In this document: one piece after another, positions 27,414 to 43,785 of the stretch
Position numbering within the stretch: position 1 is the first letter of the stretch
Layout: each line of letters opens with the position of its first letter
Program-made: the position numbers and the translations under genes
Origin: an uncultured Clostridium sp.
GTDB lineage: Bacteria > Bacillota > Clostridia > Christensenellales > CAG-138
NCBI GenBank assembly: GCA_964392455.1
Contig: CAYMPG010000003.1
Span: forward strand, 802 to 64,801
DNA: 64,000 nucleotides
Direction of reading: 5' to 3'
Notes under the pieces: model-generated
The model's input: the letters and a program-made list of their open reading frames with translations, nothing else
Database searches by the model: none
What the model was told of the DNA's origin: nothing

Positions 27414-28437
27414 CCATGGCGGGAACAGGTTTTCCTGTGAAAACATACGGCTGGATTTTTCCGTAAGCCTCAACCCTCTGGGTATGCCTCCAGAAGTAAA
27501 GGAAGCAGTATCCTCCGCCATTGCAGAATATGAAACATATCCCGATACCCGCTGCCGTAGGCTGTGCAGTGCCATTGCCGCCCGGGATGGGGTGCAGCCT
27601 GACGACGTGCTGTGTGGAAACGGCGCATCGGAGCTAATATACCGCCTGTGCCTTGTAACACAGCCCAAGACCACCCTGCTGCTGGCCCCCACCTTCTCGG
27701 AATACGAGCGGGCGGCGCTGCTATATGGCAGCAGCATACGCTATCACTATCTGGATGAATACAATGGGTTTGCCCTCACTGAAAGCATACTTAAGGACAT
27801 TACCCCTGAGATAGACCTTTTTTTCCTGTGCAATCCCAACAACCCCACAGGCCAGCTTGTGGATATAAACCTTATGGAGGCCATCGCCCACCGATGCCAC
27901 GCCACCGGTACACAGCTAATGGTGGATGAATGCTTCCTTTCCCTCACAGAGGGCACCTCCTGCCGGGCGCTGCTGGATAAATACCACAATATGCTGCTGC
28001 TGGATGCCTTCACCAAGAGATATGCCATGGCCGGGCTAAGGCTCGGGTATGGCGTTTCAAAGAATCATGCCCTCATGGAAAAGCTTGCAGATGCCGGGCC
28101 ATGCTGGAATGTATCAGCAGCGGCACAGGCCGCCGGGCTTGCCGCCCTTGAATGCGGCGAATATGAGCAGCAGGCAAAGGCCCTTCTCAGCTCTGAGCGC
28201 AGCTTTCTTACCGGCGCACTGAAGGAGCTGGGGCTAAAGGTATACCCCTCTCAGGCAAACTATCTGCTGTTTTCCTGTGAAAAGGAGCTTAAGGAGCCGC
28301 TGATGAGCAAAGGGATGCTCATACGCTCCTGCGAAAACTTTGAGGGGCTGGATCGGCGCTATTACCGGGTATGCATAATGAAGCATCAGTACAATTGCGA
28401 GCTTGTCGCAGCACTCAGGGAGGTACTTAATGGCTAA
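27400..28437 (+). CDS. cobD: Threonine-phosphate decarboxylase CobD (class I/II aminotransferase fold)
   Basis: 'DFSVSLNPLGMP', 'NPNNPTG' and 'FTKRYAMAGLRLGY' (PLP lysine context) are present. Confidence 0.85.
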   Translation: MERYDHGGNRFSCENIRLDFSVSLNPLGMPPEVKEAVSSAIAEYETYPDTRCRRLCSAIAARDGVQPDDVLCGNGASELIYRLCLVTQPKTTLLLAPTFSEYERAALLYGSSIRYHYLDEYNGFALTESILKDITPEIDLFFLCNPNNPTGQLVDINLMEAIAHRCHATGTQLMVDECFLSLTEGTSCRALLDKYHNMLLLDAFTKRYAMAGLRLGYGVSKNHALMEKLADAGPCWNVSAAAQAAGLAALECGEYEQQAKALLSSERSFLTGALKELGLKVYPSQANYLLFSCEKELKEPLMSKGMLIRSCENFEGLDRRYYRVCIMKHQYNCELVAALREVLNG

Positions 28438-29914
28438 GCCTATCATGATACAGGGCACCATGTCCAATGCTGGCAAAAGCCTGCTGTGTACAGGGCTTTG
28501 CAGGGTATTCAGGCAGGATGGGTACAGGGTAGCCCCATTTAAAAGCCAGAATATGGCCCTTAATTCCCACATCACCGCCGATGGGCTGGAAATGGGCCGT
28601 GCCCAGGCAGTGCAGGCAGAGGCCTGCGGCCTGGAGCCCTCCGTACATATGAATCCAATACTTCTAAAGCCCGTTACGGACATGGGCTCCCAGGTGATAG
28701 TAAATGGCCGGGTATTGGGCAACATGAAGGCCGCCGATTATTTTGCCATGAAAAAGAGCCTGATACCTGATATTATGAGCGCATATGATGCACTTGCGGC
28801 GCAAAATGATATAATCGTAATAGAAGGCGCAGGGAGCCCCGCAGAGATAAACCTCAAGCAGGATGACATCGTAAATATGGGCATGGCCCGCATGGCCGGG
28901 GCACCTGTGCTGCTGGTTGGAGATATTGACCGTGGCGGCGTATTCGCCCAGCTTGCAGGTACGCTTATGCTGCTAAATAAGGATGAGCAGGCCATGGTAA
29001 AGGCCACCGTGATAAACAAATTCCGTGGGGATGTTGAGCTGCTGCGCCCCGGCCTTGATATGCTGTACGGCATTACCGGCAAGCCCGTGGCAGGGGTACT
29101 GCCTTACCTTAAGGTGAATATCGAGGCAGAGGACAGCCTGTCCCAGCCCTCATCAAAGGGACATGAGGCCATAGATATTGCGGTAATACGGTTTCCCCGC
29201 ATTTCAAATTTTACCGACCTTGCGCCCCTTGAGGCCACGCCCGGCGTGGGCGTAAGATATATATCCTCCCCCCTTGAGCTGGGTACGCCGGATATGCTGG
29301 TGCTGCCCGGCACCAAGAATACCATATCCGATCTGCTGTGGCTTAGAAGCTCCGGCCTTGAGGGCAGTATAAAAGCGCTGTCACATGGCAGCACGCTTAT
29401 CGTTGGCATATGCGGCGGCTACCAGATGCTGGGCAGGAGCATTAAAGACCCTGAAGGCGTTGAGGGCGGCGGCGAAATAACAGGGCTGGGGCTGCTTCCC
29501 GTTCATACGACATTCCGGCGGCAAAAGCACCGTACCCGCACCACAGGCAGCATAATCTGCTCAGGCGAGCTGCAGCCCCTTAACGGCCTATCGATATACG
29601 GTTACGAGATACACATGGGCAGCACTTCCCCCGAGCCCGGAGCCCAGCCCCTTTTGCTGCTGGACAATGGCCTTACTGACGGCTGCATTTCAGGGAATGT
29701 TTTAGGGAGCTATCTGCATGGCTTTTTCGATAGCGCCGAATGTCGCCAAGGCATAATAAACCTGTTATGCCAGCGAAAGGGTATAGACCCCTCCGCCTAT
29801 GCAGCCTTTGACTACACCCTATACAAAGAACAGCAATACGACCTGCTGGCAGATGCGCTAAGGAGCAGCCTTGATATGAGCATGATATACCGTATACTTG
29901 AGGAGGGCATATGA
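28430..29914 (+). CDS. cobQ: Cobyric acid synthase CobQ/CbiP
   Basis: 'IMIQGTMSNAGKSLL..APFKSQNMALNS', 'EGAGSPAEINL' and a C-terminal GATase region 'GICGGYQMLG' are present. Confidence 0.9.
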   Translation: MAKPIMIQGTMSNAGKSLLCTGLCRVFRQDGYRVAPFKSQNMALNSHITADGLEMGRAQAVQAEACGLEPSVHMNPILLKPVTDMGSQVIVNGRVLGNMKAADYFAMKKSLIPDIMSAYDALAAQNDIIVIEGAGSPAEINLKQDDIVNMGMARMAGAPVLLVGDIDRGGVFAQLAGTLMLLNKDEQAMVKATVINKFRGDVELLRPGLDMLYGITGKPVAGVLPYLKVNIEAEDSLSQPSSKGHEAIDIAVIRFPRISNFTDLAPLEATPGVGVRYISSPLELGTPDMLVLPGTKNTISDLLWLRSSGLEGSIKALSHGSTLIVGICGGYQMLGRSIKDPEGVEGGGEITGLGLLPVHTTFRRQKHRTRTTGSIICSGELQPLNGLSIYGYEIHMGSTSPEPGAQPLLLLDNGLTDGCISGNVLGSYLHGFFDSAECRQGIINLLCQRKGIDPSAYAAFDYTLYKEQQYDLLADALRSSLDMSMIYRILEEGI

Positions 29915-30435
29915 ACGGCCTGATACACATCTACACCGGCGACGGCAAAGGCAAGACCACCGCAGCCCTCGGGCTGGCCATTCGGGCTGCAGGCTGTGGC
30001 AAGAGGGTGCTTATTGTGCAGTTTTTCAAGGGCAGAGATTGCGGAGAGCTGCACTCGCTGGAGCTGATTAAAAACATTTCCCTCCTCCGCCCCGAGGCCT
30101 GCCACGGCTTCTATAAGTACATGACCGACGACCAGCGAAAGGAAATATATCAGGAGCATACCCGGCTCCTTTCTCTTGCCCTGGAGCAGGCCCACAGCGG
30201 CACATTGGATATGCTCATACTGGATGAGGTAATGTCTGCCTATCAGCACGACGCAGTGGATACGACCATGGTAGACGCTCTGCTGCAAAGCAAGCCCGCC
30301 ACCCTTGAGCTTGTGCTGACAGGCCGTGATGCCCCTCCCCACTTCATAGCCATGGCTGACTATGTAACAGAAATGCACAAGGTAAAGCACCCCTACGATA
30401 GGGGCATTTCCGCAAGGGAGGGAATAGAATTTTGA
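29911..30435 (+). CDS. cobO: Cob(I)yrinic acid a,c-diamide adenosyltransferase (CobO/BtuR type)
   Basis: 'IHIYTGDGKGKTTAALGLAIRAAGCGKRVLIVQFFKG', 'LDE' and 'TGR.AP' are present. Confidence 0.9.
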   Translation: MNGLIHIYTGDGKGKTTAALGLAIRAAGCGKRVLIVQFFKGRDCGELHSLELIKNISLLRPEACHGFYKYMTDDQRKEIYQEHTRLLSLALEQAHSGTLDMLILDEVMSAYQHDAVDTTMVDALLQSKPATLELVLTGRDAPPHFIAMADYVTEMHKVKHPYDRGISAREGIEF

Positions 30436-31064
30436 CCCATAATATTGACAATATCTCCCCCGGAGATATTGAAAAGCGCAGCTTTGAGATCATCCAATCA
30501 GAGCTGCCCCATCCCCTGGACCCTGAGCTTGCCCCGATCATAAAGCGGGTGATACACGCCTCAGCGGATTTTGACTATGCCGATAATATGTATTTTTCCG
30601 ATAACGCCGTAAAGCACGCCCTTAGCGCCATACTTGAGGGCGCATGCATAGTTACCGATACAAACATGGCTAAGGGGGGAATAAATAAAAAAGCTTTGTC
30701 CAGGCACGGCGGAGAGGTATTCTGCTTTATGGCAGATGAGGACATACAGCTTTCTGCAAAGGCCAACGGCACCACCCGGGCAGCGGCCTCCATGGACAAG
30801 GCCTGCGCCATAGACCGGCCGCTGATATTCGCCATAGGCAATGCACCCACGGCGCTGATACGGCTGCACGAGCTGATTTCCGATGGCCGTATTTCCCCCC
30901 GGCTCATAATCGGCGCACCTGTTGGCTTTGTAAATGTCATTCCGGCGAAGGAGCTCATCATGGAGCTGGATACGCCCTGCATAGTTGCCCGGGGACGCAA
31001 GGGCGGCAGCAATATCGCCGCCGCAATATGCAATGCCCTGCTGTATATGCTGGGCCGGGAATAG
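30432..31064 (+). CDS. cbiC: Cobalt-precorrin-8 methylmutase CbiC
   Basis: TTG start. 'IEKRSFEII', 'VIHASADFDY', 'IGNAPTAL' and 'IIGAPVGFV' are present. Confidence 0.9.
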   Translation: MTHNIDNISPGDIEKRSFEIIQSELPHPLDPELAPIIKRVIHASADFDYADNMYFSDNAVKHALSAILEGACIVTDTNMAKGGINKKALSRHGGEVFCFMADEDIQLSAKANGTTRAAASMDKACAIDRPLIFAIGNAPTALIRLHELISDGRISPRLIIGAPVGFVNVIPAKELIMELDTPCIVARGRKGGSNIAAAICNALLYMLGRE

Positions 31065-31155
31065 CACAGCCTGCCGCTAAATTACATTCATCAGTGAAAT
31101 TTAGAACATTTTCCGCATATATTTAGCATACCAACTTGACGGAGGTGTTTAAATT

Positions 31156-31388
31156 TTGCGTATATTGGTGATCAGTAAGCGCACGCTCATAATTGCTGCC
31201 ATAGTTCTTCTGGTGCTCATCGTTGCCATCCTGCTGCTGCTCAGCTTCGCCCCCGATGCGGCTGCCGCCAGCTCACGCCCCATTGAGGAATACGAGCTGG
31301 AAGTCCTTGCAGGGCAAAAAAAAGAGCTGCCCATCTACAGCGTAGACCGCAGCGATAAAAAAATAGCCCTTACCATTGATGCAGCATG
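31156..31388 (+). pseudogene. 5' fragment (codons 1-77) of a split NodB-type, PdaB-like polysaccharide deacetylase gene
   Basis: The TTG start lies 8 nt after GGAGGTG. An N-terminal TM anchor is followed by 'PIYSVDRSDKKIALTIDAA'. After 31388 the frame continues into unrelated sequence for 7 codons and stops (31408-31410). The missing remainder is found at 43770..44345. Confidence 0.85.
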
Positions 31389-31407
31389 TGCTGCGGCTCA
31401 AATGTGG
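31368..31407. other. attL junction of the inserted element (crossover at or near TG 31387-31388)
   Basis: The host half is 'ccattgatgcagca', then TG, then the element half 'TGCTGCGGCTcaAATGTGG'. The 7 bp CAGCATG (31382-31388) is repeated at 43765-43771. Confidence 0.8.
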
Positions 31408-31424
31408 TAACCGCCGCCCATTAC

Positions 31425-31458
31425 AAAACCCCGCCGAATATCGGTGGGGGTATTTTTC
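31425..31458. terminator. Bidirectional hairpin terminator just inside the element's left end
   Basis: CCCCGCCGA (31429-31437) pairs with TCGGTGGGG (31441-31449). A T-run follows on the plus strand, and TTTTG follows on the minus strand. Confidence 0.6.
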
Positions 31459-31516
31459 TTTCCCTCGTCAAAGCACCTCTGCCCCAGCGTAAGGCCACTA
31501 ATGTGTCATCAAAATC

Positions 31517-32212
31517 GTTTAAGACCCCTCTGGAATTACACAGCTCTCAAACGCGGCGGCGTTCATGGCGTAGTATTCTACGGTTTAAGACCCCTCTGGA
31601 ATTACACAGCTCTCAAACATGACAAGCTCTTTCATGCGGACTTGCTTTGTTTAAGACCCCTCTGGAATTACACAGCTCTCAAACAGACGCTGGAAGAAGC
31701 AAGGGCACGCTTCGGTTTAAGACCCCTCTGGAATTACACAGCTCTCAAACTGCCGAGCCTTATGTTATCGAGAAAGATGAGTTTAAGACCCCTCTGGAAT
31801 TACACAGCTCTCAAACGGTGGCTGAGGCCGCTCCTCTTTCTCCGGTGTTTAAGACCCCTCTGGAATTACACAGCTCTCAAACGGAGCCATCCTTCCAAGC
31901 GAGCTTGACCCGGTTTAAGACCCCTCTGGAATTACACAGCTCTCAAACAAGAACTGAATATAACGAGCCTTAAAGAAAGTTTAAGACCCCTCTGGAATTA
32001 CACAGCTCTCAAACTATTTTTTATGCATTTTCTTTTTCTTATTTGTTTAAGACCCCTCTGGAATTACACAGCTCTCAAACAACCCCCCAAAGCACCTTCC
32101 GCATAGGCTCGTTTAAGACCCCTCTGGAATTACACAGCTCTCAAACGAGCCGACCTCTCAAAGGCTATCCGTGATGGTTTAAGACCCCTCTGGAATTACA
32201 CAGCTCTCAAAC
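31517..32212 (-). CRISPR. CRISPR array: 11 identical 36-bp repeats and 10 spacers of exactly 30 bp
   Basis: The plus-strand repeat is GTTTAAGACCCCTCTGGAATTACACAGCTCTCAAAC at 31517, 31583, 31649, 31715, 31781, 31847, 31913, 31979, 32045, 32111 and 32177. In the transcribed (minus) orientation it is GTTTGAGAGCTGTGTAATTCCAGAGGGGTCTTAAAC, a type II-A-like repeat. Confidence 0.98.
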
Positions 32213-32301
32213 CTCAAATTTGAAAATCGGCCCAGCCAGCCGTGTGTACTTCCAAAGGAACACCTGTGTCTTTATTATACTGTAAAACCATTCTTTTGCA
32301 A
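32213..32301 (-). promoter_or_regulatory. CRISPR leader with candidate promoter
   Basis: This is the 89-bp interval between the csn2 stop and the first repeat. On the minus strand, TTGCAA (32301-32296) is followed by a 16-nt spacer and TATAAT (32279-32274). Confidence 0.6.
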
Positions 32302-32967
32302 CTATATTTCACATAAATCCCTGTCTATAATTGTGCGCCGCTCACCGCTCAGCAGCGGATGCTCACTCCCCTCTATCATAAGTATTCTATGCTTGCGGGG
32401 GCATGTGGTATAAAAGAAATCTGTCAGCTCCTCATCTGAAAAATAGCTTCTTAAATTAACAAAGATAAACAGCTTTTCCCGCTCAAATTCTGCCACCATA
32501 TCCATATAGCTTATTATTGCATCAATATCATTTTCAGGTGCTTCCTCCACAGCAAGGTTTGCCTGTTTTAAAAAGGATGCTATGGTCAGCTTATCGCTAT
32601 CAAAGGTAAGCGGGTATTCTCCGCACAGCTCTGTCAGCAATTGCTCTATACCTGATAATACCAGGTGGTAGCGCTCAAAGTATTCGGATTCCATGGCCCT
32701 GCTCTCTATTTGGGATATTATACGGGTAAGCAGCGTCTTTTTATTGCAGGGGAAGGGAACTATCTCTGTAAACATTTCAGCGTGCTTTGAAATGCTCAGC
32801 AGCTTGCCTTCTGATGAAAGCACGCAGGTTCCCGGTTCATCACAAAGCTGACGGCGTATGTCCTTTATGAGGCTGCGGAAGGCACTTTGATTTTCAATCA
32901 CTATCGAGCAGGCGCAGCCTTCCTCAAGGGGTACAGGCGGGCTATATTGAGAAAAAAGCAGCTTCAA
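32302..32967 (-). CDS. csn2: Csn2 (type II-A adaptation protein)
   Basis: 221 aa, positioned after cas2 and before the array. 'KLFIFVNLRSYFSDEEL' parallels S. pyogenes Csn2 'KLLIFINSGAFLTKDEV'. Confidence 0.85.
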   Translation of the reverse strand: MKLLFSQYSPPVPLEEGCACSIVIENQSAFRSLIKDIRRQLCDEPGTCVLSSEGKLLSISKHAEMFTEIVPFPCNKKTLLTRIISQIESRAMESEYFERYHLVLSGIEQLLTELCGEYPLTFDSDKLTIASFLKQANLAVEEAPENDIDAIISYMDMVAEFEREKLFIFVNLRSYFSDEELTDFFYTTCPRKHRILMIEGSEHPLLSGERRTIIDRDLCEI

Positions 32968-33284
32968 AGAATCACCAGCCTTTCATCGCTAGTTACCACA
33001 TCTGTTTCAAGCCTGCCCACCAGATATTCCATGCCTGCGAATTGCTTTTCCGTAACGGTGAGCATCTGTACCAGGCCTGCCGGCGGCCTGTTTTTGCGTA
33101 CGGTATCCATTGCCGCCTTGCCTGCACCGGCATTTATCAGCAGGCGGCAGTATACCGACTCCTGCATCATTATAAACCCATTGCTTATCAGCGCCTTGCG
33201 AAAGCGCCGATAGTTTCGCCTGTCATCCGGCGTTTCTGTAGGCAGGTCAAAAAATACCAATACACGCATAAATCTGTAGCTCAT
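32964..33284 (-). CDS. cas2: Cas2
   Basis: 'MRVLVFFDLPTETPDDRRNYRRFRKALISNGFIMMQESVY' is typical of Cas2. It overlaps the cas1 stop and the csn2 start. Confidence 0.95.
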   Translation of the reverse strand: MSYRFMRVLVFFDLPTETPDDRRNYRRFRKALISNGFIMMQESVYCRLLINAGAGKAAMDTVRKNRPPAGLVQMLTVTEKQFAGMEYLVGRLETDVVTSDERLVIL

Positions 33285-34153
33285 AGCAGTGGAAACTTTA
33301 TTGCTTCAATGTCATCGCCGTTCAGTGCATCGAATACGCTCTTTGTGTATATCTTTATCGAATTGAGCACGGTCTGTTCGCTGCCATTTATGCTTACTGT
33401 ATCATTAAGCACAGCAATTACCCTGTGCTTTTCCTCAGGGCTAAAATCCCATAGCTCCATGGACAGCACCCTTTTATCTATTAGCGGCCGATATGGCTCC
33501 ATAAGGTCACAGCTCAGATTAAACTGATTGAACACATTGTCATGAAACAGCCCAAATTGCGTTAGATACCCATTTGCCGTCACCTCCCTGTTAAATACAG
33601 AAAGGATTATCCCGTAGCCATAATCCAGCGCCGCATTTATCGGATCCGGCGAAGCCCTTCTAACAAAGTCCATTCCAAACAGCCCATTGAAATAAACCTT
33701 CGCTGCATGGCCCTCCCTGTTTGTCACATCGCCAAATTCAATCTCCCCAATATATCTGGTCAGCTTATCCGCCTCGTTTTCCCTGCCGGCAGCCCGCAAT
33801 ACGCCTGCCTGGTTTTTAATCTTTTCTGTAACTATGGCCGTCCATACGTGGCCCTTGGTCAGGTCTGTCCACTGCATTTGCTGCTTTACCTTGCGTGAAG
33901 TATCGTGGCTGCCATAATACGGGCAAAGCTCTGCGGTGGGATTTCTTTTCCCATCGCAGAACACCACCCTTATCTTTTTATTCACCAGCTCGGATAACAG
34001 ATACCCCGTCATGGATACCGCAGTGCTTTCTATCATCAGCAGAGCAATCTCATCCATAAACACCCGCCTGGTCTCCTCGCCCCGTACCACAAGGTAGCCC
34101 ATTTTATAGTCCAGCTTGCATCTGCTGGAAATCACCACCGTGCGCCAGCTCAT
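33281..34153 (-). CDS. cas1: Cas1 (type II)
   Basis: 290 aa with 'GYLVVRGEE', 'NAALDYGYGIL' and 'HDNVFNQFNLSCDLMEPYRPLID'. Confidence 0.95.
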   Translation of the reverse strand: MSWRTVVISSRCKLDYKMGYLVVRGEETRRVFMDEIALLMIESTAVSMTGYLLSELVNKKIRVVFCDGKRNPTAELCPYYGSHDTSRKVKQQMQWTDLTKGHVWTAIVTEKIKNQAGVLRAAGRENEADKLTRYIGEIEFGDVTNREGHAAKVYFNGLFGMDFVRRASPDPINAALDYGYGIILSVFNREVTANGYLTQFGLFHDNVFNQFNLSCDLMEPYRPLIDKRVLSMELWDFSPEEKHRVIAVLNDTVSINGSEQTVLNSIKIYTKSVFDALNGDDIEAIKFPLL

Positions 34154-34157
34154 ATCT

Positions 34158-37100
34158 TTACAGCAGCGTCAGCAGGTTTATCGACGCCTTCTCATACAGA
34201 CCCGATGGCGATTGATCTATTATGCGAACGTCTGAGTAGCTCTTCTTCCAGTTCGAAAGGCTTGAGCTTAATGTAGGCACCCCTGCCTTTCCAACACCGC
34301 CTATGGCTGTAAAGTCACTTCCACCGCCATTCCTGCTGAATACAACAAGTATTTCAGACAGGATTTTAATTTGCTCATCAGGAGCTAAGCCAATAAACTT
34401 CTTCCGTCCGTTCACGAGCGTATCTATCACGTTGCTGACTGCAGGCCGCTTGTTGAATGGATATGCCGACAGCTTCTGCGTGAGCACATCGTATAGCTCT
34501 ATATTCTTTTCAGGTGTCAGCTTATCATAATCGGCATTCAGCTTGAGCTGCTGATTATCCCTGCGTTTATTCTGGAATGACTCTATGCGCTTAATGTATC
34601 TCTCATCCTCCGGCTCCAGCCGCAGCGGCATCAATGGTGATACAAGCAGCAGCTTTCCGCCGCTGGCTTTTCCGGACAGAGCCACACGGAAGCCGTCCAG
34701 CGACAGAATGGTATTTACCCTGAGTATGCGGGCTTCCATCGGCAATTCCACGCTATCAACAGCCTTGCCGATGACTTTTTCTATGGCCGCCCTGGTAACC
34801 TCTCTGGCTGCCGCATAGCTTTCAGCAAACTTTGCTGCCATTATCAGCTCAATAGGAACTATCATCAGCTCGCTTTTTTTACCCAGATAATACTTTGCCA
34901 GCACGAAGAACGTGGCTGTAGGCTTTCTGTATCCACCATACTTCTCAGGTGGCAGGTTGTTTTTGCGGGGCAGCAGTTCGCTTTTTAATGTAGCGCCCAT
35001 TGGCTGCTGATCATACAGCGAGCCTTTGCGGCAGAATGCATACCGTGTTACGTGGATATGGTTCTTCTGCACTATTCGCTTGACCCTGCCGATATCTGCC
35101 TCTCCGCGCCATACGCATCCGTTTTTCCCTACCGGATGGTCAAATATCTCCTTTGTCTTCATGCTGTATTTCTGATCCAGCCTGAAGTAGTTTTTATTGA
35201 ATTTTTCATGGTATACGTTGCCTACCACCACATTCAGGTAAGCATCCTTGGCATGGTGCAAATCATTCACCGTGCGGCATTTCAGCATTTCAAATTCATG
35301 ACGAAAATCAGCTACCAGCCCAGCCTTTACGTACACTATCTCGGTATCAGGATAACGCTCCTTAAGGATAGATGTGACTGCCTTGGTGGACTGTCGGGTC
35401 TCTACCAGCTGGCGCTGTATAAAGCCCATCAGCTCATCATCGGTAAACTGCGTGGTTCTGGTAAGCCTGCGATACTTTTCTTCGGTAATAAGATTCTTAT
35501 CATGCAGCTTTTTCCAGAACACGCCCATGCGGCTTCTTATATCCGCCTTAATCGGGTATTTGTCCCCTTTATCTCCGTTACACTCAGAACGACACAGCAC
35601 CTTGTTGTTGAGTATACTGTCATCCTTTACCTTGCACTGGGGATAAATGTGATCCACGTCATAGATTTTTTGATCCGATAAATGTTCCAGCGCAATAGGC
35701 TCCCCGCTATACATACACTTGCCCAGCTGCATAAAGTAAAGGTACAGCTTGTCGCTTTGCAGGGCGTTATCGTCCTTTGTCTCCAGCAGGTTTTTCAGTT
35801 CACGTACTTCGCTCTCACTAAACTCCTTATACGCTTCCAGTATCTGAGTGCGGCGTGACTTTGTGCGCTTTCCCTTTTGTTCCTCGTTGGCTCCCCGTGC
35901 CATTTCTACAAATATCCTGCTGGGTGGCGCTCCCAGGGCTTTCACAACGTCCTTTACCACATCAAGCGTGCGATATATCTGACGCCGTACCGTATTGGAT
36001 AAATACAGCTCATCCATCCGTTTGGACAGGCTCTTTGGGTTTTCTCTATAATACTCGGTTACTTCATTTTTGATATTATCTGCAAATGTGAACTTATCCG
36101 TCAGCAGCTCCATGATGGTATAGTTGGTTTCCCACATAGCCTGCAGCATGGTGAATACCTGGCCCGTACCCGAATTCCTTTCCATTCCTTCAATTTCACA
36201 GAGGAGTCTGCGTGAAAGCCTCCCGAAGTCCTTAAACTTCTGATTGGAAAGGTATTTGGCATCTTCCGTGCATATATTGGGAAATTCTTTTGATATCCAT
36301 CGGATAAAGCGTGCCTTGTCCTCGGTGCAGGTGATGCGCTCTATAATCTGCTCCGCCTGATCCACCGTTAGCATTCCTGCATCCAGGAGCTTCCGGAAAG
36401 CATGCCATGGTTGCAATGAAGACTTTATGCCCTCAGTATCCACTCCGCTCAGTATATCGGAGCTGAGCATGTATCCTTCGCTTATGCAGAACTCCTTCAG
36501 TGCTTTAAAGGTTACACGTTTTTTTCTTTCAAATAGCTCACGGTATATGCTTTGCTTCTGTTCTACAGTGATTGGGATGCCATTTATTTTTATAGGATTG
36601 ATTTCATTAAGAACAGTAAACTTTGTATAATACAGCGAATTCTTGGGCAATACATACTCCGAAGGGAGATATGTACAGCGGCCAATCATATTATGAATAA
36701 ACCTATCCTCGCTCTTGTCCAGATCCACCATATCCTCAAAATTCCACGGGTATATCCTGCCTGCCTTTCTTTCCAGCCAGGCATAGCTGCTGCGATTATT
36801 CAGCGGCCCTACATAGTATGGAATTCTAAACCTGAATACGGATATTATCTTTTCAGATACAGTAAGCCCGTCGCTATCCCTTTCCCTGAGAAATGGTAGA
36901 TATTGCTCTGCATTTTCCAGTATTTTCTTCAGCTCCACCAGATAAAGCTGATATGGTATGACACGGTTGTCTGTGTCCTTCTGCTTCGGCATAAATGTAT
37001 ACATCTCCAGCCGGGCAAGCATATCATCATATTCTGCTTTGTCAGCCTGCTGCACATCAATATTCTTTACTATTTTCTTTATATAATCGCAAAAGTCCGT

Positions 37101-38243
37101 TTTTTTCGCATATTTGTCCGTCTTCTTTCCTTTGCCAGAGGAATGGTGCGAATATGCACAGTAATTCTTTTCTGTTGCGTCATTAAACACTTCATCGTAT
37201 TTACCCGGTGCGTATTTTTTAACAAAGCCTTTTAGGTAAGCAAGGTCGGCTTTATGCTGCTGGTATATTTTTACCTTGGCGCTGGATATATACTTTTCCT
37301 CCTGAAGAACATCGGTAAGCACAGACCAATCGTACAATTCCTTCAGCTTGCGTACCAGCTCTGCATCATCGCCCAGCTGCATAAGTACAGACTCCAATTT
37401 CCCTTCATCGCCGCCGAGATCTATGGACTCAGCACTTGCATACTCGTCCGCCTTATGCGGGAAAAGCTTTCCCGGCATCACCTTGCCCCCGCACAAAAGC
37501 GATATCATGCCTGAGCGAGATATTATCGGAGCCGCCTTATCCTCATCATCAAGGTGCATATCGGTCGGCTTTTTGCCATCAAATAAAAGCTCATTAAATG
37601 CTTTCACCTTATCGCTTATGCGAAGCTTTGTTTTGAGTATGCGGGCAAAGTCCTCTACGTTACAATACCAGGGCTTTTCCCCATCAAACCAGTTTATAAA
37701 GCCATCATATATTTCGGATATATCAGTAGCAGCCTCTACGTTATCCTCGCTGACCGAGCTGAGAAAATGCCCTCTATGAGCCACCAGCCATGCACAAGCA
37801 ATATATACCAGCCTCACATCATGGGGTTCGTGTGATTCCATCAGGTCAACGATAAGGTGGTGAATAGTTGGATAGGCCTTATAATAGTCCTTTTCACTAT
37901 AGTCAGCATCATTAAAGTACACACCCTCAGAGCCGGTTGTGGACTTGTCCTCCTGCCATAATGCACTTTCGCGTATGCGGATGAAAAATTGCGGATCTTT
38001 AGCCGTTATCGGTACAGCTAACAATTCCTGAATAAGCTGTACCCGCTGCTTACGCCTATCAACACGCCGCCGTGCGGTACGATTTGCGCGGCGTTCTTCC
38101 GAAAGGGCGGCACTATCAAAAGTCATGACACCAGCCATGGGCTCTCCTTTAAATTTTTGGAGGTTGTATTCCGTATCGGTAACAGCATAGCCTACAGAGT
38201 CAGTGCCACAATCCAATCCCAGATAGTATTCTTTGTTTTTCAT
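34158..38243 (-). CDS. cas9: Cas9 (type II-A, 1361 aa), nuclease motifs intact
   Basis: RuvC-I is 'YYLGLDCGTDSVGYAV'. HNH is 'DVDHIYPQCKVKDDSILNNKVLCRSECNGDKGDKYP'. The RuvC-III region is 'NDLHHAKDAYLNVVVGN'. 'IPYYVGPL' is also present. Confidence 0.97.
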   Translation of the reverse strand: MKNKEYYLGLDCGTDSVGYAVTDTEYNLQKFKGEPMAGVMTFDSAALSEERRANRTARRRVDRRKQRVQLIQELLAVPITAKDPQFFIRIRESALWQEDKSTTGSEGVYFNDADYSEKDYYKAYPTIHHLIVDLMESHEPHDVRLVYIACAWLVAHRGHFLSSVSEDNVEAATDISEIYDGFINWFDGEKPWYCNVEDFARILKTKLRISDKVKAFNELLFDGKKPTDMHLDDEDKAAPIISRSGMISLLCGGKVMPGKLFPHKADEYASAESIDLGGDEGKLESVLMQLGDDAELVRKLKELYDWSVLTDVLQEEKYISSAKVKIYQQHKADLAYLKGFVKKYAPGKYDEVFNDATEKNYCAYSHHSSGKGKKTDKYAKKTDFCDYIKKIVKNIDVQQADKAEYDDMLARLEMYTFMPKQKDTDNRVIPYQLYLVELKKILENAEQYLPFLRERDSDGLTVSEKIISVFRFRIPYYVGPLNNRSSYAWLERKAGRIYPWNFEDMVDLDKSEDRFIHNMIGRCTYLPSEYVLPKNSLYYTKFTVLNEINPIKINGIPITVEQKQSIYRELFERKKRVTFKALKEFCISEGYMLSSDILSGVDTEGIKSSLQPWHAFRKLLDAGMLTVDQAEQIIERITCTEDKARFIRWISKEFPNICTEDAKYLSNQKFKDFGRLSRRLLCEIEGMERNSGTGQVFTMLQAMWETNYTIMELLTDKFTFADNIKNEVTEYYRENPKSLSKRMDELYLSNTVRRQIYRTLDVVKDVVKALGAPPSRIFVEMARGANEEQKGKRTKSRRTQILEAYKEFSESEVRELKNLLETKDDNALQSDKLYLYFMQLGKCMYSGEPIALEHLSDQKIYDVDHIYPQCKVKDDSILNNKVLCRSECNGDKGDKYPIKADIRSRMGVFWKKLHDKNLITEEKYRRLTRTTQFTDDELMGFIQRQLVETRQSTKAVTSILKERYPDTEIVYVKAGLVADFRHEFEMLKCRTVNDLHHAKDAYLNVVVGNVYHEKFNKNYFRLDQKYSMKTKEIFDHPVGKNGCVWRGEADIGRVKRIVQKNHIHVTRYAFCRKGSLYDQQPMGATLKSELLPRKNNLPPEKYGGYRKPTATFFVLAKYYLGKKSELMIVPIELIMAAKFAESYAAAREVTRAAIEKVIGKAVDSVELPMEARILRVNTILSLDGFRVALSGKASGGKLLLVSPLMPLRLEPEDERYIKRIESFQNKRRDNQQLKLNADYDKLTPEKNIELYDVLTQKLSAYPFNKRPAVSNVIDTLVNGRKKFIGLAPDEQIKILSEILVVFSRNGGGSDFTAIGGVGKAGVPTLSSSLSNWKKSYSDVRIIDQSPSGLYEKASINLLTLL

Positions 38244-38280
38244 ATTGACATCCTCCGGAAAGATATGGTATTTTGGTCAT

Positions 38281-38399
38281 GTAAGAACAGTCCCCTCTGG
38301 ACTTACACAGCAAGTTCAAATAAGATTTCATCGAAATCGTCAGCTTGTCTGACCGTACAAGAGTACGACTTAAAGATGCCCGATTGGGTGTCTTTTTTT
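38281..38399 (+). ncRNA. tracrRNA (divergent from cas9)
   Basis: The anti-repeat 'CCCCTCTGGACTTACACAGCAAGTTCAAATAAG' is complementary to the crRNA repeat with the usual bulge. It continues like the Sp tracrRNA 'AGCAAGTTAAAATAAGG'. It ends in the hairpin GCCCGATTGGGTG plus T7 (38392-38398). Upstream are TTGACA (38245-38250) and TGgTATTTT. Confidence 0.75.
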
Positions 38400-38698
38400 G
38401 TTTGTTTTCGCAGGGGTTCTTTCAGATAGACGGTTAATTCTTTTTTCGATATGGTAAGATGTGTGTTGATTATACTCTATTTTTCTCCATATCGCAACAA
38501 ATTATCTTGTGGCAGCTCGTATAATTTTGCTTTTATTTTACTCCTGTACATTTTTTCCTGTTCGGATGCATTTTATCAACAATTATAATGTATTTTTGTC
38601 AGGTAAGCACACAGCCCTAAAGCCGAACCCGAGCAGCCTATTTATGTGCCTTGAAAGGCGCTCCCCGCCATAACCATATTTTCCCTGTACTCCGGGCT

Positions 38699-40204
38699 TT
38701 ATTCGCCCCACCTGTAGCGTATTTGGACAACGCCATTTGGAAATACCTTTACACAATCAAGTATTATGCCTATCGTTGCCCGGTCCAGCTTTATAATGGC
38801 TCTTTCATTCGCCAGCCTGTTCAGCCACTGTGCTGTACAGGGAGCGCTTTCTTCTTCGCAGATGGTCTGCCGCAGCTTCTCCATGCGATGCTCCAGGGCT
38901 GCCTGAATTTCTGTAAATTCATTACGGTTCAGCTTATTATTCTTATATCTCTCATAGGCATACCGCTTATCCATGGCAAGGCCGGACATGGCAAGCGCCA
39001 GCGCTGCGAGGCTTTTCTCTTTTCTGCGCCGTGCGTCCTCTGCCATACTGCCGCATATACCGGCTACGTCTGCTTTTTCAATTAGGCGATTTACATCCTC
39101 CAGCACAATGCGGCTCAGCTTTGCTTCATATATTCTGTGGCTGCCGCAGGCACATGGCCCGCCAGTTTTATACCGTGTACAGAAATATGCCCCTCTACCA
39201 TGGTAATTTACCAGCTTCATCCTGCCGCCGCAGGCTCCGCAGTATATCAGCCCAGCGAAAAGGCTGCCTGACCCACGAAATGCCCTGCCAGTGCTGCGCC
39301 CGGCAAGCATTGCCTGCGCCTGCTCCCATTCCTGCCGCCCGATGATTGCGGGATGAGTATCCCGATGGATGATCCATCGCTCCCGTGGAATGGAGAAAGC
39401 CCTATCATGCATGCTGCTCTTTCTGCTTTTGCCTTCAGGCGTATCCCCTGCATATACAGGGTCACGCAGCAGCCTATCCACGGAAAATATGCTCCACGCC
39501 CAGTTTTTTGTATTGGGTGCAGCCCTTTTATAAAACCCGCTTTCTGCCCGCCTTACCCCCGGGCAGGGTATTTCCCGCCGGTTCAGTTCGCTTGCAATGG
39601 CGGTTTTGCCCATGCCCCCAAGATACATGGCGTATATCTGCCTTACAGTTTCGCTGTCGCCATTTGGAATAAGGCTGCCATCTCCACCGGCTGCTTTGTC
39701 ATAGCCATACGGCGGCGATGGGCAAAGGTACTTCCCCTGGGCTCTGCGGGTGCTTAAGGCCGTACGCACCTTTTTTGAAATATCCTCTGCATACTGGGCA
39801 TTCATAAGGTTAACAACTGGAAGCCTTATGCCATCATATGGGCTCGTGACGCTATCCATATTGTCATTGATGGCGATAAAGCGCACGCCAAGGCGGGGAA
39901 ATACCCGCTCAAGATATTCACCCGCCAGTATAAGGTCGCGGCCAAAGCGGCTAAGGTCCTTTACCACCACGCAATCTATGCAGCCCGCCTCGATATCCCG
40001 AATCATCTCATTAAAGGCAGGCCGGTCAAAGCATACGCCGGAATAGCCATCATCGGAATAATGCCCTGCTATGCTCAGCTCTTCGCTGCGGAGGCAATAC
40101 TCCTCCAGTAGCTGCCGCTGCACCCGTATGCTTTCGCTGGGCGCATCCTCCCCATCCTCCCTGGATACCCTTTCATACAGAGCCGCCCTGTATACCTTCT
40201 GCAT
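38699..40204 (-). CDS. Large serine recombinase (501 aa)
   Basis: The N-terminal resolvase domain has 'AALYERVSREDG..SIRVQRQLL..DDGYSG' and 'VVVKDLSRFGRD'. A recombinase domain and the zinc ribbon 'CGACGGRM..FCTRY..CACGSHRI' follow. The C-terminal coiled-coil tail is TnpX/TndX-like. Confidence 0.9.
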   Translation of the reverse strand: MQKVYRAALYERVSREDGEDAPSESIRVQRQLLEEYCLRSEELSIAGHYSDDGYSGVCFDRPAFNEMIRDIEAGCIDCVVVKDLSRFGRDLILAGEYLERVFPRLGVRFIAINDNMDSVTSPYDGIRLPVVNLMNAQYAEDISKKVRTALSTRRAQGKYLCPSPPYGYDKAAGGDGSLIPNGDSETVRQIYAMYLGGMGKTAIASELNRREIPCPGVRRAESGFYKRAAPNTKNWAWSIFSVDRLLRDPVYAGDTPEGKSRKSSMHDRAFSIPRERWIIHRDTHPAIIGRQEWEQAQAMLAGRSTGRAFRGSGSLFAGLIYCGACGGRMKLVNYHGRGAYFCTRYKTGGPCACGSHRIYEAKLSRIVLEDVNRLIEKADVAGICGSMAEDARRRKEKSLAALALAMSGLAMDKRYAYERYKNNKLNRNEFTEIQAALEHRMEKLRQTICEEESAPCTAQWLNRLANERAIIKLDRATIGIILDCVKVFPNGVVQIRYRWGE

Positions 40205-40206
40205 GG

Positions 40207-41778
40207 CTATGCATCATCCCGAGAGCAGGCCCCGGCAATATCCGAAAAGCGATAGCATATCTTTACACAGTCATCATTGTACACATATATGCCCTCCACC
40301 GTTGCAGCAAGCGTCACCCGGTCCAGCGATTCTATTCGCCTCTGCTCAATGAGCTGTCCTGCCCATTTTTTACTTGGCAGGGCTTGCTGCTCCACAATCT
40401 CATTCTCCACCTGTAGCTGCCGCCTGAGGGCTTCCTCGCCTGCCTCATACTCTGCCCTGTATGAAATATAATCCTCGCCGGAAAGCAGCCCGGCCTTATA
40501 ATCCTCATAAAGGCTGCGGCGCAGTCTCTCCATTCGCTCAATGGATTTTTGTATCCGCTCTTTTTCTGCCGTGTGCCGGGTGGGCGGCACTGTCTTTGGT
40601 ATTCTTATGCTGCTCATATCAGGTATGGCTTCAAGCATGGAGTTCAGATCGCCAAGTAATATGGCCGCCACAGTGCTGCGCCATATCCTGCTGCCGGAAC
40701 AGGCCCCTGTGCCATATCGCTCATAGCTGCCGCAGGAATATTTCGCCTTTTCCCCCTTGCCACGGGACACCATGCTCCGGCCGCACAGCCCGCATTTTAT
40801 AAAGCCCCTGAGCGGATCCTCCAGCACGGGGCCATGGCTCCTCTCCCTCACCTTAAGCAGCCGCTGTACCCTCTCCCACTGTTCAGCCGAGACCACCGGG
40901 TCATGGGTGTTTTGCTTAACTATCCATTTATCCCGCTCCTGCAGCCGGGCTTTGCCATGCATGGCTGGCCGGCAGTACTTTCCCTGCACCATGTGGCCTG
41001 CATATACGGGATTGCACAGTATCCTGTGAATGGTGGAATACGTCCAGTAGGTGGTACCATCCAGCTTAAGTCCGTTTTTATAGTTTTCCCCCATAAGCCG
41101 CTTGTATTGGCTGGGGCAGGGTATACCCTCATCATTCAGTCGACGGGCAATGGCATCCTTGCCCTGGCCCCCTTCAAACATATCGTATATCCTCCTCACC
41201 ACCCCTGCTGCCCCCTCGTCAATCACAAGATGGCTATGGGCCTCAGGGTCACGGCAATAGCCATAGCTGCAAAACGCCCCTATAAACTCACCCCGTCTGC
41301 GCCTTGTGTCGAAGGAGCTCCTTATCTTCCCGGAAATATCCCTGGCGTATTGAGAATTGAATATATTCTTTATTGGCAGCATCATGTCATATGCTCCATT
41401 GATGCTGTCCACATTGTCATTTATGGCGATAAAGCGCACGCCCTTCTGGGGCAATATGCGCTCAAGATACCTGCCGGTATCTATATAATCCCTGCCAAAG
41501 CGGCTCAAATCCTTTACGATGATACAGTTTATCCTGCCTTCCTCCACAGCCTCCATCATCTGCCTGAATGCAGGCCGTTCAAAGCTGGTGCCGGTAAAGC
41601 CGTCATCCACATAGTGGCAGGCTATCTCCATATCCTCCGCCTGATGGCAGTAGCTTTCCAGCATATTTAGCTGGCTGGTAATGCTGTCGCTCTCCGCCTT
41701 ATCCCCATCCTCACGGGAGAGCCTTGCGTACAATCCGCATCTGTAAATCTGCCGCCCGGGCTTTGCCATATCCTGCAC
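40207..41778 (-). CDS. Large serine recombinase (523 aa), tandem paralogue
   Basis: 'CGLYARLSREDGDKAESDSITSQLNML..DDGFTG', 'IIVKDLSRFGRD' and the zinc ribbon 'CGLCGRSM..YSCGSY..GACSGSRI' are present. Its stop is 2 nt before the downstream recombinase start. Confidence 0.9.
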   Translation of the reverse strand: MQDMAKPGRQIYRCGLYARLSREDGDKAESDSITSQLNMLESYCHQAEDMEIACHYVDDGFTGTSFERPAFRQMMEAVEEGRINCIIVKDLSRFGRDYIDTGRYLERILPQKGVRFIAINDNVDSINGAYDMMLPIKNIFNSQYARDISGKIRSSFDTRRRRGEFIGAFCSYGYCRDPEAHSHLVIDEGAAGVVRRIYDMFEGGQGKDAIARRLNDEGIPCPSQYKRLMGENYKNGLKLDGTTYWTYSTIHRILCNPVYAGHMVQGKYCRPAMHGKARLQERDKWIVKQNTHDPVVSAEQWERVQRLLKVRERSHGPVLEDPLRGFIKCGLCGRSMVSRGKGEKAKYSCGSYERYGTGACSGSRIWRSTVAAILLGDLNSMLEAIPDMSSIRIPKTVPPTRHTAEKERIQKSIERMERLRRSLYEDYKAGLLSGEDYISYRAEYEAGEEALRRQLQVENEIVEQQALPSKKWAGQLIEQRRIESLDRVTLAATVEGIYVYNDDCVKICYRFSDIAGACSRDDA

Positions 41779-41781
41779 AGA

Positions 41782-41913
41782 TTATGCCTCCGGCTGCCTG
41801 TCCTGGTGGGCCTTTATCAGCTCTATCACCACCTGCTCAGGGCTCTTTTCGCCGGAAAAAAACCTTACCACCTTTATGCCGCCTTCCATTTCATCGTTTG
41901 CCCGGGTATCCAT
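41782..41913 (-). CDS. Small ORF (43 aa) immediately upstream of the recombinase pair; possible directionality/accessory factor
   Basis: The product is 'MDTRANDEMEGGIKVVRFFSGEKSPEQVVIELIKAHQDRQPEA'. GGAGGAGG lies about 7 nt before the ATG, and the stop is 3 nt before the recombinase ATG. It is below the ORF-track length cutoff and was found by hand translation. Confidence 0.45.
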   Translation of the reverse strand: MDTRANDEMEGGIKVVRFFSGEKSPEQVVIELIKAHQDRQPEA

Positions 41914-42014
41914 AGAGCGCCTCCTCCTTTTTTCTTTTATAAATCTCTATTTCGCCCATACGGCCCATATGAATGGTTTCACAAATAAAATCCCTGGCCT
42001 GTGCTGTTTATATG

Positions 42015-42050
42015 CAAAAACCCCACGGGCTGCATTTGCACCCATGGGGC
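42015..42050 (-). terminator. Rho-independent terminator after the cNMP-binding genes
   Basis: On the minus strand, CCCCATGGG-loop-CCCGTGGGG is followed by TTTTTG. Confidence 0.65.
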
Positions 42051-42085
42051 TTTGCTAAATTCAATGGGCTGTCTACGGGCTGGGG

Positions 42086-42586
42086 TCAGTATATGCGCCC
42101 ATTGATGTATGTATCCGATATGGCCTCCACATAGTCGTTTATAAACTTGCCAACCTTTTCCCAGAACATTCCCTCCCGGGGCTTATCTTCCTCCTCCTTC
42201 TTTACGGCCTCTGCCACCGCCCGGCAGGTCTCCAGGTAATCTCTGGTAAGCTCCCGCGTGCGCCGGCTCAGGTTTTTCATAATGCACAGCAGCGCCTCAG
42301 GGTCATCTCCAAAGTAATCTGCAAAGGCCTCCCCGGTGACCAGCCTGGTTTCAACATCATCCAGCGCAACTGCCGTGGCAGATCGGCGCATGGAGTCCAC
42401 CAGGCCAATTATGCCCACAGTGGCGCCGGGGCCGCCCTTTACCTCGGTAAGCTTGAATTCATCCGGCATGCCGTAGTTTTTATATATGCCCACCGTGCCG
42501 CTTCGCAGGTCATACATCCACATTTCGAAGCTGCCCTCTTTATATATGACATCGCCCTTTTTAAACAGGCGGGTGGTATCTTCCAT
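42086..42586 (-). CDS. Cyclic-nucleotide-binding-domain protein without a DNA-binding domain (166 aa)
   Basis: 'FKKGDVIYKEGSFEMWMYDLRSGTVGIY..VGIIGLVDSMRRSATAVAL' is a Crp-like beta-barrel. It is followed only by a helical tail. ATG at 42586 lies 1 nt after the upstream stop. Confidence 0.75.
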   Translation of the reverse strand: MEDTTRLFKKGDVIYKEGSFEMWMYDLRSGTVGIYKNYGMPDEFKLTEVKGGPGATVGIIGLVDSMRRSATAVALDDVETRLVTGEAFADYFGDDPEALLCIMKNLSRRTRELTRDYLETCRAVAEAVKKEEEDKPREGMFWEKVGKFINDYVEAISDTYINGRIY

Positions 42587-42587
42587 T

Positions 42588-43013
42588 TTACTTTTCCTCC
42601 ACTGCCTTTTCCCCTTGTGAGCTAAGAGCCTCTGCAAGGGCACTGCGGGCCTCCATGTAATCTCTGGTGATATCACGGATGCGCCTGCACATATTCTGTA
42701 TAATATCCACCACCCTCTCAGGCCGCTCATTCAGATAAAACCTGAAGGTCTCTCTTGTGATTATCTCAAGCCTCGTTTCCCCATCCATGGCTATTGCCGT
42801 GGCGCTGTGAGGCACCTGATCCACAAAGCTCATTTCTCCAAACACCTCATCGCCACGGCGCAGAGCCAGCATTTTTTCATTCTCCGTGCCGTAGTCCACA
42901 TATATGCCCACGCTGCCCCAGCGTATATCATACATACACTCGGCAGGCTCTCCCTGCCTGAATATTATCTCTCCCTTTTTATAGGTTCTATATTCCCTGC
43001 TTGATGCTGCCAC
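42588..43013 (-). CDS. Cyclic-nucleotide-binding-domain protein without a DNA-binding domain (141 aa), paralogue
   Basis: 'YKKGEIIFRQGEPAECMYDIRWGSVGIYV..FGEMSFVDQVPHSATAIAM' is present. It shares the helix 'RRIRDITRDYMEA' (versus 'RRTRELTRDYLET') with its paralogue. The GTG start is uncertain. Confidence 0.7.
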   Translation of the reverse strand: MAASSREYRTYKKGEIIFRQGEPAECMYDIRWGSVGIYVDYGTENEKMLALRRGDEVFGEMSFVDQVPHSATAIAMDGETRLEIITRETFRFYLNERPERVVDIIQNMCRRIRDITRDYMEARSALAEALSSQGEKAVEEK

Positions 43014-43058
43014 CCTGCAAATTCCTGCCTTTCATAATGCTGCCTGTCAAATGCCCTT

Positions 43059-43592: not shown

Positions 43593-43661
43593 TTTATTGC
43601 CTCCACTTATCATACTGGCTGCATCACACAGCCTCTGCCCCCATAGCTCGAGCGCACCTTA

Positions 43662-43691
43662 AATATACAATGAAACGCCTCTGCATTTCAA
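43662..43691 (-). promoter_or_regulatory. Candidate promoter for the flavodoxin/cNMP operon, just inside attR
   Basis: On the minus strand, TTGAAA (43691-43686) is followed by an 18-nt spacer ending in TG and then TATATT (43667-43662). Confidence 0.5.
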
Positions 43692-43744
43692 CAGTCTTCC
43701 GTCTGAAGCCTGTCTTAAAATGCCCCATATTCCATACATGCTTT

Positions 43745-43785
43745 TCCATCCACATTATCAGCCTCAGCATGGGAAGACGACAAGA
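43745..43785. other. attR junction of the inserted element (crossover at or near TG 43770-43771)
   Basis: The element half is 'CCACATTatcAGCCTCAGCA', then TG, then the host half 'ggaagacgacaag', which resumes the deacetylase reading frame. Confidence 0.8.

Follow-up and report, generated by a model that had tools for sequence, protein, structure and literature searches.

How does a complete Cas9 immune system come to lie between the two halves of a host gene, and is such an insertion a travelling cassette, a relic, or a resident still able to leave the gene that it interrupts? This question is raised by a stretch of 64,000 nucleotides (nt) from contig CAYMPG010000003.1 of an uncultured Clostridium sp. 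(assembly GCA_964392455.1), the whole of which is called here the window. In it, a type II-A CRISPR-Cas9 locus is found inside an island that carries two large serine recombinase genes, SR1 and SR2, and that splits a polysaccharide deacetylase gene. An earlier interpretation made from the letters alone, hereafter the sequence-only reading, had taken this insertion to be a minimal, mobile or excisable immunity cassette. Taking into account the evidence set out below, we consider it rather probable that the locus is a TnpX-like-recombinase island with a canonical Cas9 system as cargo, long resident, vertically inherited and likely excisable, in the manner of the gene-intervening elements gin and skin.

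The limits of the island are given by the gene that it interrupts. It occupies positions 31389-43771 (12,383 bp), and the CRISPR-Cas block, with 6.9 kb, is its largest passenger. The two deacetylase gene parts at its borders join in frame to encode a protein of 268 amino acids (aa), which matches Pfam Polysacc_deac_1 (2e-38); among the NCBIfam models it scores highest with TIGR02764, PdaB, whose cutoff of 237 bits it misses with 201. Uninterrupted relatives of this protein (268-271 aa) align with the whole of it and reach 87% identity, and those at 66-67% identity carry the JGI name PdaB. The insertion point falls in the region coding for motif 1 of this PdaB-type gene. The closest syntenic relative (locus L037) shares the neighbourhood running from the cob operon through cbiC and pdaB to a ROK gene and has pdaB intact, which makes it an unoccupied syntenic site in a related species; an intact pdaB-like gene was seen in related species only, at no more than 87% identity.

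Both borders carry the same core, CAGCATG, and the island-side P' arm repeats, in inverted orientation, the P arm at the other end. When the two ends are brought together, the rebuilt attP is CCACATTATCAGCCTCAGCA-TG-TGCTGCGGCTCAAATGTGG, an imperfect palindrome of about 2 x 20 bp with a central TG. Its arms are symmetrical at 17 of 20 positions, a score found at one of 63,900 positions of the window (a terminator hairpin). The junction predicted to remain in the chromosome after excision, attB, reads CCATTGATGCAGCATGGGAAGACGACAAG, CCCTTACCATTGATGCAGCATGGGAAGACGACAAGACTCC, and that predicted for the circle, attP, reads TTATCAGCCTCAGCATGTGCTGCGGCTCAAATG, CCACATTATCAGCCTCAGCATGTGCTGCGGCTCAAATGTGG. 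In a second strain, described below, more than 60 bp about the core of attR are identical to the window, with the adjoining non-coding DNA about 10% diverged; the 3' half of pdaB is 96.5% identical at the nucleotide level, and both halves of the gene keep open frames. It is from the structure of the att sites, together with its conservation, that we infer precise excision. The strong terminator-like hairpin just inside attL would insulate the island from read-through out of the 5' part of pdaB and would shield the array from antisense transcription.

The CRISPR-Cas9 locus (31517-38400) looks complete and functional, comprising an array, a leader with its promoter, csn2, cas2, cas1, cas9 and a divergent gene for the trans-activating CRISPR RNA (tracrRNA). 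The array was called by Tandem Repeats Finder and direct reading. Its repeat reads GTTTGAGAGCTGTGTAATTCCAGAGGGGTCTTAAAC in the sense of the CRISPR RNA (crRNA), and it ends 128 bp from the attL core. Cas9 keeps the motifs GLD11CGTDSVG, FVE781MAR, DVD864H865IYPQ, NNKVL/SECNGDKGD and HHAKD1000AYLN, and the catalytic residues D11 (RuvC-I), E781 (RuvC-II), D864/H865 and the Asn of HNH, and H997/D1000 (RuvC-III) are all present. The top solved structure for this protein is 9jwk (5e-207), aligned end to end, whereas the alignment with SpCas9 (about 1e-133) is limited to residues 3-1017. The tracrRNA contains an anti-repeat of 23 nt (38289-38311) with 91% identity to the repeat, and its co-fold with the repeat gives -69 kcal/mol; an Rfam scan of 30500-45000 gave no match, so that the tracrRNA falls in no Rfam family. 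This RNA is almost invariant between the two strains, and the intergenic DNA next to it diverges. The leader, 97.8% identical in the second strain, resembles that of a Cas9 relative at 71% identity (locus L033). The completeness of the parts, the conserved catalytic residues and the purifying selection described below would together indicate a canonical II-A system in action, and the identity of the repeats, with ratios of nonsynonymous to synonymous substitution (dN/dS) of 0.07-0.135 in the cas genes, likewise argues for a functional one.

A good promoter-like site on the cas9 strand, TTGCGA-17-TATAAT (38469-38497, minus), lies upstream of the tracrRNA gene. If cas9 were transcribed from this site, its 5' untranslated region would be antisense to the whole tracrRNA, and the two may regulate each other.

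These results bear out most of what had been read from the letters about the locus itself: a complete II-A system within an att-bounded element that splits a host gene, an array about 130 bp from attL, and intact RuvC and HNH motifs and adaptation genes. The comparison of the spacers with phage and plasmid databases that it had proposed gave no target. None of the ten has a blastn match among the INPHARED phages or PLSDB plasmids, the six of the ten tried as exact matches in IMG/VR were not found there, and neither the window (at up to 7 mismatches) nor the loci of relatives (at up to 5) contains a matching sequence. The features of the island and of the interrupted gene are collected in the following table, where the families named come from the Pfam, NCBIfam (TIGR) and PHROG libraries.

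Table. Features of the island and of the interrupted deacetylase gene, by position in the window.
Feature	Position	Strand	Description
pdaB-like 5' part, 77 codons	31156-31388	plus	NodB-type deacetylase start; ends in attL core, then foreign sequence
attL	31382-31410		core CAGCATG 31382-31388 and island-side P' arm TGCTGCGGCTCAAATGTGG
Terminator-like hairpin with T-run	31429-31449	plus	9-bp stem, 7 GC pairs; 40 bp inside attL
CRISPR array	31517-32212	minus	11 identical 36-nt repeats, 10 spacers of 30 nt; leader-proximal end 32212
Leader	32213-32301	minus	promoter TTGCAA-16-TATAAT at 32301-32274, directly past csn2 stop
csn2, 221 aa	32302-32967	minus	TIGR01866 1.8e-43, PF09711
cas2, 106 aa	32964-33284	minus	TIGR01573 2e-18, PF09827
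cas1, 290 aa, type II	33281-34153	minus	TIGR03639 1e-87
cas9, 1361 aa, intact	34158-38243	minus	TIGR01865 1.9e-270; Pfam REC, HNH_4, RuvC, BH, PI
tracrRNA gene	38245-38400 (RNA about 38282-38400)	plus	promoter TTGACA-18-TATTTT 38245-38274; three hairpins; terminator 38372-38400 with T-run
SR1, large serine recombinase, 501 aa	38699-40204	minus	Resolvase, Recombinase, Zn_ribbon_recom domains; PHROG 95 integrase
SR2, large serine recombinase, 523 aa	40207-41778	minus	Resolvase, Recombinase, zinc-ribbon domains; 37% identity to SR1
Conserved 43-aa open reading frame	41782-41913	minus	directly upstream of SR2; kept in second strain
cNMP-binding protein, 166 aa	42086-42586	minus	Pfam
cNMP-binding protein, 141 aa	42588-43013	minus	Pfam
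FMN reductase	43059-43613 (longest open reading frame)	minus	Pfam
attR	43745-43771		island-side P arm CCACATTATCAGCCTCAGCA and core CAGCATG 43765-43771
pdaB-like 3' part, 190 codons and stop	43772-44345	plus	in-frame continuation of 31156-31388

The recombinases SR1 and SR2 both carry the RxSREDG motif with the catalytic serine (RVSREDG in SR1), and among solved structures both come closest to the TnpX catalytic domain, the best PDB match of SR1 (1.3e-27). No close relative of SR1 was found in JGI metagenomes or IMG/VR. The relatives of SR2 (up to 64% identity) are single recombinases accompanied by a small open reading frame (ORF) and without Cas9. One of these ORFs, of 45 aa (9842-9979 of locus L040), lies upstream of the 64%-identical SR2 homologue in an unrelated island and has in common with the 43-aa ORF of the window the motif V-I/V-R-x-FSGE-K/R-SPEQV-x2-ELIKAH, which argues that the latter is a real gene; no Pfam or PHROG family matched it. 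By analogy with other systems, its product may serve as a recombination directionality factor or as a regulator. Two more ORFs of the second strain, of 68 and 54 aa, were rejected as genes because stops interrupt both of them in the window.

No phage structural, conjugation, relaxase or Mob domain was detected in the ORFs of the island with Pfam, NCBIfam or PHROG, and the sequence-only reading had been right to see neither phage structural nor conjugation genes. It had been wrong in calling the element minimal, since the 43-aa ORF, two genes for cyclic-nucleotide (cNMP)-binding proteins and a flavin mononucleotide (FMN) reductase gene are carried as well.

Assemblies of several recombinases are also found elsewhere. 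Two human-faecal sequences deposited as 'Bacteriophage sp.', MT837953.1 (L045, 5.9 kb) and MT836038.1 (L044, 14.8 kb), consist mostly of three tandem large serine recombinase genes, whose products are 32-38% identical to SR2. Multi-recombinase modules thus seem to be common on small gut contigs or plasmids, some of which have been deposited as phages.

The age and inheritance of the island can be judged from a second strain, known from Logan contigs of the samples SRR17221338 and SRR19576299. In a collection of 5.8 billion proteins, the closest Cas9 (95% identity) is encoded on two Logan contigs from different samples, both with the order SR2'-SR1-cas9-cas1-cas2-csn2 and both 94% identical in DNA to window positions 32183-41323. 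A third contig (SRR19576299) reads pdaB-3'|FMN reductase-cNMP-cNMP-43aa-SR2-SR1' at 93.7% identity, so that right junction and passengers are as in the window. The linkage of recombinases and cas9 recurs, therefore, in independent assemblies of two other samples, and is due neither to faulty assembly nor to chance. The coincidence that the sequence-only reading had named as its possible refutation is contradicted by the same recurrence at about 94% nucleotide identity.

All features, island and host alike, are 92-98% identical in nucleotides to their counterparts in the second strain, and the synonymous divergence (dS) of the island genes, 0.06-0.33, encloses that of a host phosphorylase gene, 0.19. 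The shared right junction and a synonymous divergence like that of host genes point to vertical inheritance. Purifying selection acts on every one of the cas and recombinase genes, with dN/dS values of 0.07 for csn2 and cas2, 0.08 for cas1, 0.135 for cas9, 0.23 for SR1 and 0.13 for SR2; the host-like genes described below have 0.03-0.09. The uniform divergence, these ratios and the conservation of attR and of the tracrRNA have been taken to argue that the island is neither a dead fossil nor a recent independent acquisition.

More distant relatives show a different context. A scan of 185,579 species-representative genomes for Cas9 gave 30 loci, with a top identity of 53%, and none of them has a serine recombinase or a pdaB fragment within 10 kb. 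The next relatives after the second strain, at 71% and 63% identity, are likewise without recombinases and have a helicase/DUF559 gene or rubrerythrin genes as neighbours; the repeat of the former is one base off that of the window. As these two stand in recombinase-free contexts, the CRISPR module occurs both inside and outside such islands. The first 31 nt of the repeat are absent from JGI metagenomes and IMG/VR. The comparison of cas9 and repeat with databases, suggested in the sequence-only reading, had therefore a divided result: the 95% relative belongs to the same island, right junction included, and those at 71% and 63% lack the recombinases.

The right part of the island resembles host DNA. 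Of its three genes next to attR, two had been overcalled: homologues of the ORF at 42086-42730 (214 aa) begin at its Met49, giving a protein of 166 aa with start at 42586, and those of the ORF at 43059-43613 (184 aa) begin at Met8, giving 177 aa with start at 43592. The block 42083-43697 is 75.5% identical in nucleotides to positions 12755-14388 of L037, which served as reference for this comparison, and its proteins are 77-90% identical, within the range of 63-98% of the flanking host genes. In L037, the two cNMP-binding genes and the FMN reductase gene lie outside the intact pdaB, with a xanthine-dehydrogenase-like operon on one side and the ROK gene on the other. The same block is present in the island of the second strain.

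The spacer of about 77 bp between the FMN reductase and ROK genes occurs twice in the window in diverged form, at 43660-43697 and 44499-44580 (L037 counterpart, 14312-14391). The island copy loses its homology to L037 at CAACAG, where L037 reads CAACAGCATGTGC, and the backbone copy, between pdaB and ROK, holds a third CAGCATG at 44574. This third core and the spacer duplication hint at a secondary or pseudo att site. A scheme of one or two recombinase-mediated excision and reintegration steps through CAGCATG 44574 and CAACAGCATGTGC of L037 was nevertheless abandoned, because the junction CAACAG|TCTTCC (43697/43698) misses the TG crossover and the spacer copies are too diverged for ordering events. 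The island may have taken up host DNA from its neighbourhood, or else the block in L037 is the relic of an older island.

The surroundings are also plastic. The second strain is without 13.5 kb of the window, from 44347 at the pdaB stop to 57873: its contig (L042) continues for about 36 bp past the pdaB stop, at 1341-1377, and then matches window positions 57874-59213 at 95%. From this comparison, the block of sugar-metabolism genes concerned (a ROK kinase, an isomerase of the AP-endonuclease fold, a GFO/IDH oxidoreductase and others) is a strain-specific indel. Protein identity to L037 is uneven, with 63-82% in the cob genes upstream (23037-31388) and 92-98% in the ROK, AP-endonuclease-fold and GFO genes downstream (44499-47165), which suggests that the sugar-gene block has recently recombined or been transferred between species. 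Away from the island, pockets of low G+C (0.40-0.42) lie at 9001-11000 and 57001-58000, against about 0.50-0.55 otherwise, and in the first of these lie two ORFs that match nothing in NCBIfam, and, at 9436, a perfect 17/20 hairpin.

A course of events can be proposed from these elements. A TnpX-like large serine recombinase would have integrated the island into the motif-1 region of a PdaB-type gene. The tracrRNA, from its own promoter, would pair with the pre-crRNA transcribed from the leader promoter, and the duplex would be processed by RNase III and Cas9. Cas9 would then cut targets flanked by a protospacer-adjacent motif, and Cas1, Cas2 and Csn2 would insert new spacers at the leader end. 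Recombination of attL with attR at the central TG, catalysed by SR1 and/or SR2 and possibly directed by the 43-aa protein, would excise the island precisely and restore the deacetylase gene. An exchange of DNA between the island and its chromosomal neighbourhood would account for the three host-like genes.

In Bacillus subtilis, pdaB (spoVIE) is a member of the sigma-E regulon and is required for sporulation (PMC4703394). The identity of the split gene as PdaB-type, overlooked in the sequence-only reading, suggests an intervening element of the skin/gin type, and it might be expected that the island is kept as such and is removed from the mother-cell chromosome in sporulation. This upkeep by mother-cell excision, argued by analogy, is possible, although on balance we would not count on it. 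That the outcome is a germline-restricted Cas9 cassette, developmentally excised so that the mother cell loses the island and the forespore keeps it, is doubtful.

Several points weigh against the interpretation as a resident, excisable island of the gin/skin kind. The deacetylase lies below the threshold of the PdaB family; no further sporulation gene was recognised among the 20 window proteins scanned; and inspection by eye of the DNA upstream of pdaB and the 43-aa ORF revealed no convincing sigma-E or sigma-K promoter. No excised circle and no empty site of the same species were found in assembled data, and exact look-ups of the host CbiC and of the FMN reductase gave no element-free contig of the same species. 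The second strain supplies the right junction alone, the spacers match no phage or plasmid in the databases searched, so that activity of the CRISPR system is presumed, and the entry of the three host-like genes into the island can be read in two ways. TnpX, in addition, works without a directionality factor.

Other histories have to be weighed against it. The island could be an actively mobile cassette of the Tn4451 or SCC (staphylococcal cassette chromosome) kind, excising as a circle, carried by helper plasmids, transduction or transformation and inserting into the deacetylase motif of new hosts, where a dispensable paralogue would be knocked out with no developmental role. This deserves attention, taking into account that TnpX provides the nearest solved catalytic domain for both recombinases, that a conserved coding motif is a usual target of broad-host serine integrases, that the CRISPR block has a G+C of 0.43-0.49, lower than the 0.53-0.57 of the upstream host DNA, that the unrelated contexts of the 71% and 63% Cas9 relatives imply past transfer of the CRISPR module, and that small gut contigs and plasmids commonly carry serine recombinases in tandem modules. 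We regard it as unlikely all the same: the island is known from one lineage and one site with divergence like that of its host, it has neither mobilisation protein nor relaxase, it holds orthologues of neighbouring host genes, and no second insertion site or other copy was found in the 185,579 species genomes, JGI metagenomes or IMG/VR. A target homologous to pdaB/spoVIE and co-divergence with the host are the reasons for which a gin/skin-like element is favoured over a hopping cassette. Thus, of the mobile or excisable cassette that had been proposed, the excisable part agrees with the att structure, and the mobile part is called into question by the single site and the host-like divergence.

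The vertical-looking inheritance could equally reflect an old integration that has lost its excision, leaving an ordinary chromosomal CRISPR locus and a permanently broken deacetylase. The lack of any empty site or circle, the host genes embedded in the island and a rearrangement-prone locus, with the 13.5-kb indel beginning at the pdaB stop codon, would fit such a fossil. It is quite improbable, because both strains have kept SR1 and SR2 intact and under purifying selection, the arm and core of attR show no change next to diverged non-coding DNA, and the open frames of both deacetylase halves, with so little divergence in the 3' half, are unexpected in a long-dead pseudogene. Finally, the window appears metagenome-assembled and most Cas9 relatives are without recombinases, so that an assembly artefact, or a CRISPR locus placed by coincidence beside an unrelated recombinase element, had to be considered. 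This view, to which we give hardly any credence, is effectively refuted by gene halves that complement each other exactly on either side of the CRISPR locus, by the recurrence of the recombinase-cas9 adjacency and of the right junction in assemblies of two other samples, and by the palindromic attP that the island ends form.

If the resident island is excised, it would join the programmed rearrangement of sporulation genes with adaptive immunity on small recombinase cassettes, would extend the precedent of type III-A systems on SCCmec to Cas9 and to gut Clostridia, and would make pdaB one more gene that excision restores. It would also offer a compact natural unit of about 12 kb, with a pair of site-specific large serine integrases, their attP and attB sites as predicted, and a new Cas9 distant from SpCas9. 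Should the sporulation-excised reading be true, the island would be the first of these elements to carry a defence system, and also the first to target pdaB. If no excision takes place, it would be no more than an old island holding a chromosomal type II-A locus.

With regard to known systems, the CRISPR part follows the II-A loci of Streptococcus pyogenes, with a tracrRNA divergent from cas9-cas1-cas2-csn2-leader-array, 36-nt repeats, 30-nt spacers and the same catalytic residues. It differs from them in that its Cas9 is distant from SpCas9 and in that the whole locus lies within a recombinase-bounded insertion. The catalytic signature RxSREDG...SxSI..Q is common to the island and to Tn4451/Tn4453 (TnpX) and Tn5397 (TndX), which are small elements excising as circles. 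The central dinucleotide of TnpX is GA, and that inferred for the island, TG, differs from it. Unlike Tn4451, moreover, the island has two tandem recombinases in place of one, and CRISPR-Cas9 in place of chloramphenicol resistance. No Mob protein or oriT-like function was found in it, and for this reason it is not of the Tn4451 type.

SCCmec V(5C2&5) carries CRISPR-Cas of type III-A and circularises at about 1e-1 (PMC10434264). Like it, the island is a chromosomal cassette without transfer genes, with large serine recombinases and a complete CRISPR-Cas cargo. SCCmec is excised as a circle, which for the island is a prediction; the latter is II-A (Cas9), 12.4 kb long and without resistance gene, in contrast to III-A and 38-59 kb in SCCmec. 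Its recombinases are not Ccr (40-113 bits with the NCBIfam CcrA/B/C models, with cutoffs of 700-900), and its target is a deacetylase coding sequence, that of SCC being the 3' end of rlmH (orfX). The low Ccr scores and the different target show that the island is not an SCC.

In Bacillus cereus, gin interrupts gerE; it is not a phage, encodes several serine recombinases together with a directionality factor of 42 aa, GirX, and is an example of an island of this make-up that behaves as a gene-intervening element (PMC5595907); skin, SPbeta, vfbin and vrin are further intervening elements (PMC4191935, PMC5025042). The literature searched holds no report of a Cas9 or type II-A system on such an element or of a pdaB target, and a term search of PMC4191935 and PMC5595907 gave no mention of a pdaB-like target or CRISPR-Cas cargo. 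The claim that the island has no precedent holds, therefore, for Cas9 and type II-A in that literature, and gives way before the type III-A cargo of SCCmec and the example of gin. Like gin, the island is non-phage, with several serine recombinase genes and an accessory ORF of about 42 aa, and its PdaB-like target would likewise be a coding sequence of sporulation type. The 43-aa ORF is likened to GirX by analogy. With the gin/skin group as a whole the island has in common a short core, an inverted-repeat attP and a gene that precise excision would restore. In sum, gin in gerE is the nearest architectural precedent of the island, and SCCmec V(5C2&5) is the nearest functional one.

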